A stretch of 11,198 nt of DNA from a virus (lineage: Duplodnaviria > Heunggongvirae > Uroviricota > Caudoviricetes): positions 1 to 11,198 of the IMG/VR virus record IMGVR_UViG_2734482782_000002; one strand, 5' to 3'. Below are positions 1 through 615 of this stretch, in pieces (position 1 is the first letter of the stretch; the number at the start of each line of letters is the position of its first letter). The notes under the pieces are model-generated. The model was not told where the DNA came from and made no database searches. It worked only from the letters and a program-made list of their open reading frames with translations. The position numbers and the translations under genes were made by a program.

Positions 1-615
1 ATGTTAGTTAGTAAAAGCAACGGATTTAACGCTAGCGCAGTTTTGGGTAGTGGAAGTTATAATGAAAATAAATCTTCTAAACACATGGAGCTACTAGCTC
101 ATAGTATTTTAAAATTAATTTGTAAGGAAGCTGCATCAGAGACGTATCGCGGTGCTCTTGAAACTTTACAAAAAATGATGTCTGAATGTATATATCATGA
201 AGGCAACGCCTTTGTCATTATGGGAGTTGGAGAACAATTAAAACGTATTAAATATGAAGTTGGTGAAAATAACTTAAAGGTATTCAACGTACACTTTAAT
301 AATAATCACGAGTTAGTTAGTTCTGGTGAGCCTGACGTAATATGTTTAAGCAAGCAGGTCTGGGAAAATCTTCTCATTAAACTAAAGCTGGAAAACAATG
401 AAAATGTGTTTTCTGAAACTAAAAAATTATCGAATAAAAATAATGACGATCAGTTTTTTGAATGCGCTAAAAGAAATGAACAGAACCTTTTCGATAATAT
501 AAGAAAAAGTGATTTTCATGTTGGTTTACTTAAGCCAAGTAGTACGCGTAGTGTTATTTTAGAAACGCCGCCAAATGTCTGTATGGAATCACGTAATTCA
601 TATGAAAAAAAATAG
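1..615 (+). CDS. AT-rich hypothetical protein, N-terminal segment of a frameshifted gene (possibly 5'-partial at window edge)
   Basis: 204-aa ORF in visibly AT-rich DNA, ends at TAG 613-615 directly after an A8 run (605-612). The downstream reading frame is open from 606 and continues to 1373. No family recognised. Confidence 0.5.
   Translation: MLVSKSNGFNASAVLGSGSYNENKSSKHMELLAHSILKLICKEAASETYRGALETLQKMMSECIYHEGNAFVIMGVGEQLKRIKYEVGENNLKVFNVHFNNNHELVSSGEPDVICLSKQVWENLLIKLKLENNENVFSETKKLSNKNNDDQFFECAKRNEQNLFDNIRKSDFHVGLLKPSSTRSVILETPPNVCMESRNSYEKK

Follow-up and report, generated by a model that had tools for sequence, protein, structure and literature searches.

A frameshifted ypjCB allele of Escherichia coli and the probable origin of its A8 tract in a one-base deletion

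The contingency loci of Neisseria, Haemophilus, Campylobacter and Helicobacter resemble the locus described here in that a coding mononucleotide run sets the reading frame and rare ±1 variants occur, including an in-frame revertant. An A run or an A_AAA_AAA heptamer at the overlap of two frames likewise recalls recoded genes, among them Thermus dnaX with its A9, Shigella mxiE, the A9/A8 runs of IS elements and dnaX with A_AAA_AAG. Baranov et al. argued that messenger RNA may recover open reading frames (ORFs) disrupted at A runs, and noted that slippage on A8 is productive in some organisms (PMC1088944). In E. coli, single-A insertions during transcription cluster in A/T runs, and their frequency grows exponentially as the run lengthens, up to 9 nt (PMC5574713). 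The closest relatives of all are alleles of the gene itself. K-12 ypjC/ypjB (b2650/b2649, now ypjCB, a pseudogene) is the same gene at the same locus (ileY - ypjCB - pinH' - ypjA), shares about 97.8% DNA identity and is inactivated too, while the gene for the intact YpjCB protein WP_000961357.1 of strain LSN03-016011/A (457 aa) is 99.7% identical in DNA over 1400 bp and has the same flanks. The sole literature we found on the gene reports a mild biofilm-colonisation phenotype for a deletion of K-12 ypjC, the gene for the N-terminal fragment (PMC3646849).

Here we consider ypjCB at the start of an 11,198-nucleotide stretch of DNA (the window, meaning the whole stretch that was analysed), where a run of eight A lies at a break in the reading frame. 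In our reading, the window very probably carries a lineage-fixed, inherited loss-of-function allele that arose by deletion of one C, and the new A8 shows only ordinary, low-level ±1 instability. The allele is already known, as RefSeq flags a frameshifted ypjCB pseudogene, and of the three options that a first-pass annotation of this DNA had left side by side (phase variation, pseudogene or sequencing error) the pseudogene is the right one. Because it belongs to a known, annotated and lineage-fixed frameshift pseudogene, the A8 is in itself of low interest.

The A8 occupies positions 605 to 612 on the plus strand, in the context ...TCATATG AAAAAAAA TAGATGAG... as read directly from the window. 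ORF1 (1 to 615, plus strand) encodes 204 aa, comprising the DUF5507 domain (residues 1 to 160) and part of the inter-domain linker, and its 3' end reads GAA AAA AAA TAG, with the premature TAG (613 to 615) directly after the run. In the other frame the last stop is a TGA at 603 to 605, beyond which the frame is open from 606 to 1373. This -1-frame remainder of ypjCB (606 to 1373, plus strand), which would go untranslated, holds the rest of the linker, the DUF5508 domain and an acidic, Ser-rich tail. These readings bear out what the first-pass annotation had said of the run, of the stop right behind it and of the frame open from 606, and also its description of the gene as AT-rich (34% G+C). 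Its proposal that one added A restores a protein of roughly 455 aa is right as to the frame, since ORF1 and the downstream frame joined give 457 aa, with strain C11 as a natural case, but not as to the original state, which was Asn (AAC) with no ninth A. Natural intact alleles also encode 457 aa. A second A8 run of the gene (667 to 674, plus strand) is native, in frame (Lys-Lys codons) and of normal length in the window. The window has two A8 runs, where dinucleotide shuffles predict 2.0 ± 1.8, and about 0.18 would be expected within the gene under an independent-base model. The A8 as such is statistically ordinary, and the notable point is its position at a frame break inside a recognisable gene.

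The identity of that gene is clear. Positions 1 to 1400 match E. coli strain 05-3629 at 100% identity, and PGAP labels the gene there 'ypjCB, YpjCB family protein, frameshifted'; the identity is 100% to ypjCB of NZ_CP027373.1, annotated as 'frameshifted' in RefSeq. ORF1 matches Pfam PF17612 (DUF5507) at 359 bits (cut-off 27; E=2.4e-108) and ORF2, the downstream frame, matches PF17621 (DUF5508) at 554 bits (E=4.2e-167), while an intact allele of 99.7% identity reaches 942 bits with NCBIfam NF050179 (YpjCB), for which the cut-off is 650. The window sequence therefore belongs to the YpjCB family, but the single uninterrupted ORF of about 449 to 474 aa expected of a member is split at 605 to 615, and since a 1-nt deletion causes the split, we place the gene (1 to 1373, plus strand) in the family as a pseudogene. 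DUF5507 (160 positions) and DUF5508 (263 positions) are two fragments of one protein and not independent families, and their division evidently derives from the K-12 ypjC/ypjB split caused by a nonsense codon, Q161*.

Comparison of the tract among orthologues, which the first-pass annotation had recommended, shows that the ancestral and majority state is AAAACAAAA, with no repeat there. In the alignment, K-12 and the intact LSN03-016011/A allele read GAA-AAC-AAA-ATA, that is AAAACAAAA (Glu-Asn-Lys), where the window has AAAAAAAA. Nine divergent full-length YpjCB proteins, when aligned, all have Asn203, and all four of the E. coli/Shigella loci of the GTDB species set that span the site have A4CA4. 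Since the K-12 and intact alleles read AAAACAAAA and Asn203 does not vary, the A8 is not a contracted ancestral A9; the homopolymer was created when a single C between two A4 runs was deleted. The two inactive alleles differ accordingly in their lesions: K-12 has a CAG->TAG nonsense change at codon 161 and has kept AAAACAAAA, whereas in the window CAG is retained and it is the C of codon 203 that is missing. The intact LSN03-016011/A allele differs from the window in having that C, and hence one uninterrupted ORF.

We propose that one C was lost from GAA-AAC-AAA, which lies in the linker that joins the conserved halves of YpjCB. Primer and template probably misaligned across this C, a state that the A4 runs on either side would have stabilised. 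The deletion of the C of the ancestral AAAACAAAA (codons GAA AAC AAA) fused the two A4 runs into the A8 at 605 to 612, shifted the frame and put a TAG in frame directly after it, forming A_AAA_AAA followed by TAG. Because the shifted frame runs onto this TAG, translation would end at residue 204 and the DUF5508 half would go unmade, leaving a truncated product that is presumably functionless. Alleles without the C are spread over three or more SNP backgrounds; that the deletion arose once, with recombination afterwards, would be the most parsimonious account, although recurrence is possible. The A8 allele would since have been inherited vertically, with some recombination, within a large group of strains in which it is still decaying.

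Other features of the gene vary among allele families. The linker around the frameshift (window positions of about 560 to 640, residues of about 190 to 215) is a hot spot for indels: alleles of 474 aa carry a 25-aa insertion, an apparent duplication, just upstream of the frameshift site, and alleles of 484 or 492 aa carry a 35-aa insertion just downstream of it. At the 5' end (positions 17 to 140 of the window), the first ~47 codons come in two markedly distinct haplotypes among otherwise near-identical alleles, one being that of the window and the other that of IAI1, E24377A and C11. Within 125 bp these differ at some 20 positions, nearly all of them nonsynonymous (S6N, G8E, A11T, ... E47G), and could represent a patch acquired from a divergent allele by recombination, or else an N-terminus that is hypervariable.

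Of 5426 complete E. coli genomes, 3078 have the gene, and exact matches of 87- to 89-mers against the set of 5426 give the state of the first tract: A4CA4 in 1485 genomes, A8 in 282 (exact 88-mer; IAI1 and E24377A included), A7 in 13 and A9 in a single genome, that of strain C11. The A8 genomes come from many kinds of hosts and countries, and at least 1000 contigs (NCBI, JGI, ENA, Logan) encode exactly this 204-aa ORF1 protein. The C11 A9 allele is annotated as an intact 457-aa CDS whose exact protein is found on 32 contigs, and the ORF1 product of the A7 allele (205 aa) is found on 46. As the A9 and A7 products recur on contigs, the new tract does undergo real ±1 changes, rare in-frame revertants among them. 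The existence of such A9 revertants (C11; 32 contigs) also means that the ypjCB lesion is reversible on evolutionary time scales.

Within the A8 lineage, further lesions have been added to the gene. We find E154* in strains M19, S19-141 and JNEC-KY179, Q264* in E24377A, an IS5 insertion in W2-5, and A7 at the second tract in O177:H21 and S19-141. Among sampled alleles lacking the C, every varying substitution in the gene body outside the 5' variable block is nonsynonymous or nonsense, whereas between the K-12 and LSN03 allele families synonymous changes in the C-terminal half are about as many as nonsynonymous ones. This contrast, drawn from substitutions, agrees with a gene formerly held under purifying selection whose constraint relaxed once it had been inactivated. 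Across the species, the K-12-type CAG->TAG change (Q161*; codon 161, window 478 to 483, where the window has CAG) is matched exactly in about 1224 of the 5426 complete genomes, and is a different and more common inactivation of ypjCB than the C deletion. Other genomes have IS1 or IS5 insertions in the gene, and its neighbours are also pseudogenes (the pinH remnant, ypjA/ehaD and, upstream in 05-3629, an amylase-family gene). Given the occurrence of Q161* and of IS1/IS5 insertions besides the C deletion, and the state of the neighbours, ypjCB has been lost repeatedly and independently.

Could the break instead be a homopolymer error of sequencing or assembly, the true genome having an intact gene? 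Poly-A runs are common sites of indel errors, and the DH5alpha assembly NZ_CP025520.1 has A7 at the second tract, against A8 in one K-12 derivative checked (GM4792), which may be either a stock-specific mutation or a homopolymer assembly error. For the allele of the window, however, this suggestion of the first-pass annotation is refuted, since the identical 88-mer is present in 282 complete, independently assembled genomes and the exact ORF1 product on at least 1000 contigs. Two of these genomes, IAI1 and E24377A, were presumably sequenced by Sanger methods. The alternative sequence would also be A4CA4 and not A9, and a dropped C is atypical as a homopolymer length error, such that we regard an artefact as almost certainly wrong. 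Under phase variation, slipped-strand mispairing would switch ypjCB ON (A9) and OFF (A8 or A7) at high frequency. Tract length does set the frame, given that A9 reads through to an intact CDS and neither A8 nor A7 does; length variants do exist, in 13 genomes with A7 and one with A9; A7 is seen against three or more SNP backgrounds, a sign that the tract mutates to some extent; and the second A8 of the same gene varies too. That second run serves as an internal control. It is A8 in all four sequences of our first alignment (window, 05-3629, K-12 and LSN03), and of 1856 genomes whose flanks are conserved, 82 have A7 here and three have A9, the A7 carriers including the O104:H4 outbreak clone, 55989 and ATCC 8739. 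All three variant alleles examined at this tract (ATCC 8739, NT1N31 and 55989) already had Q161*, and since they had already been killed by it, the length changes of the control tract are neutral. The fraction of variants at the first tract, 14 of 296 (4.7%), equals that of this control in genes which are dead in the alleles checked (85 of 1856, 4.6%; Fisher p=0.88), and the share of A9 among variants is no higher (1/14 vs 3/85, p=0.46). With variation equal to the control and A9 not enriched, the first tract is no different in behaviour from other A8 runs in DNA free of selection. In E. coli proficient in mismatch repair, A8 tracts mutate at far lower rates than classical contingency tracts do. 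Unlike the runs of the contingency loci of Neisseria, Haemophilus, Campylobacter and Helicobacter, the run in ypjCB is neither ancestral nor conserved: it is a secondary product of the C deletion and is not kept as a repeat, 1485 genomes having AAAACAAAA and Asn203 being invariant. Nor are ON and OFF lengths both common (A8 in 282, A7 in 13, A9 in one), the ON state being found in one of the 296 genomes lacking the C, and the added nonsense, IS and frameshift lesions would make switching pointless. The phase variation raised at first pass is thus unsupported, and we think a contingency locus very unlikely here.

The remaining alternatives would give the two frames some present use. Full-length YpjCB might be made from the A8 allele by recoding, through an extra A added by RNA polymerase or through -1 ribosomal slippage on A_AAA_AAA, and the slippery motif is indeed present at the frame junction next to TAG, where a -1 shift or one additional A enters the downstream frame. 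Given the reported insertions at A runs during transcription (PMC5574713) and the restoration of ORFs at the mRNA level (PMC1088944), a trace of full-length protein is conceivable, but among the transcription errors recorded by Traverse and Ochman none restored a reading frame (PMC5574713). The layout sets ypjCB apart from Thermus dnaX, Shigella mxiE, the IS elements and dnaX, as its two frames are not conserved, lack stimulators and bear no sign of selection downstream. It is confined to one lineage, the other allele families examined being single ORFs with AAC at the codon, and the downstream frame has not been kept intact, Q264*, second-tract frameshifts and an IS5 insertion having arisen in the A8 lineage. 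No stimulatory structure was detected 3' of the tract, the best fold of 613 to 672 (-6.7 kcal/mol; z=-0.11) being no better than shuffled sequences, and no Shine-Dalgarno-like element was seen in the sequence upstream of the site. Recoding is for these reasons very unlikely, and we would give a somewhat smaller chance still to the more specific idea of a 'pseudo-pseudogene', in which slippage on A_AAA_AAA_TAG yields a small, useful amount of full-length YpjCB with Lys for Asn203. If that were true, the A8 allele would be a down-tuned and not a dead gene, and together with the rare A9 revertants it would form a slow switch on an evolutionary scale. It could also be supposed that ORF1 (DUF5507) and ORF2 (DUF5508) each yield a protein of their own, which is what the former K-12 names ypjC and ypjB imply. 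Each half has a Pfam family of its own, and the mild phenotype of the K-12 ypjC deletion (PMC3646849) is in keeping with this and leaves room for some activity in a truncated ypjCB product. The break points differ by lineage, however (nonsense at codon 161 in K-12, frameshift at codon 203 in the window), intact single-ORF alleles are common, and NCBI now models one protein, YpjCB. ORF2 has no credible start of its own, as it lacks any ATG upstream of 1269 and neither TTG630 nor GTG684 has a Shine-Dalgarno, so that the two ORFs with independent starts envisaged at first pass do not materialise. Two functional genes are in our judgement barely credible, and an inherited frameshift pseudogene is the reading we retain.

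The conservation of ypjCB as a family is narrow. A word-indexed protein search gave 437 matches, of which the best 120 were all of Escherichia type with at least 80% identity. In a set with one genome per GTDB species, no orthologues were found beyond E. coli and Shigella save on two short, contaminant-looking contigs in non-enterobacterial assemblies. These contigs, DEQI01000374.1 (a 'Planococcaceae' MAG) and NZ_VHIM01000037.1 (an Arthrobacter agilis assembly; 291 bp, coverage 0.59), carry ypjCB nearly identical to that of E. coli and most likely reflect E. coli contamination of those records. An exhaustive HMMER search for distant homologues with the C-terminal half returned only fragments of the family and spurious matches to repeat proteins (BNR, MBG, PA14). 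A profile search of PDB sequences gave no match, nor did PADLOC, and PHROGs gave only a family of unknown function. Single-sequence AlphaFold models of the two halves in the window were unusable (pLDDT 38 and 44), and the idea that the C-terminal half might be a pentapeptide-repeat protein or type III effector found no support in Pfam. On these searches ypjCB appears to be confined to E. coli and Shigella, as an orphan gene of unknown function.

Around the gene, the locus order is tRNA-Ile (ileY) - ypjCB - a recombinase remnant (pinH') - ypjA/ehaD. The recombinase (pinH-like) remnant, a pseudogene at 1711 to 1878 (plus strand), is placed by transferred RefSeq annotation and has a weak Resolvase match. 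The ypjA/ehaD autotransporter remnant, frameshifted and truncated (2286 to 5191, plus strand; RefSeq 'frameshifted; incomplete'), has AIDA repeats in two overlapping ORFs; across the region from 2157 to 5191 these repeats lie in overlapping frames at 2157 to 3149 and 3089 to 5191, and parts of it are marked incomplete by RefSeq in 05-3629. The latter strain has an IS3 at the equivalent of window position ~3980 which the window lacks, and the window equals 05-3629 up to 3980 and then, once the IS3 is left out, from 3978 to 5742. At 5700 to 5742 the 3' end of ssrA (tmRNA) is repeated with no other part of that gene; this copy appears to be an attachment-site duplicate left by an element integrated at ssrA. 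Scans of the window for tRNA, tmRNA and Rfam families (ARAGORN, Rfam) found nothing. From 5866 to 11198 the window holds the start of an integrated prophage-like element, with a tyrosine integrase with an Arm-binding domain (5866 to 7038), a ParE-like toxin ORF (7813 to 8157), an S24 peptidase fragment (8868 to 9260) and a CI/LexA-like repressor (9918 to 10622) on the minus strand, and a divergent Cro-like HTH gene (10685 to 10909) on the plus strand. No complete genome of the collection matches the entire window end to end.

Overall, the locus offers a caution, in that a homopolymer at a frame break can result from the inactivating mutation and need not be a pre-existing slippery tract. Population counts combined with an internal control tract can tell neutral homopolymer drift from phase variation without recourse to reads. 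For the biology of E. coli, the case documents the repeated loss of ypjCB by different lesions, and it identifies DUF5507 and DUF5508 as the halves of one protein.
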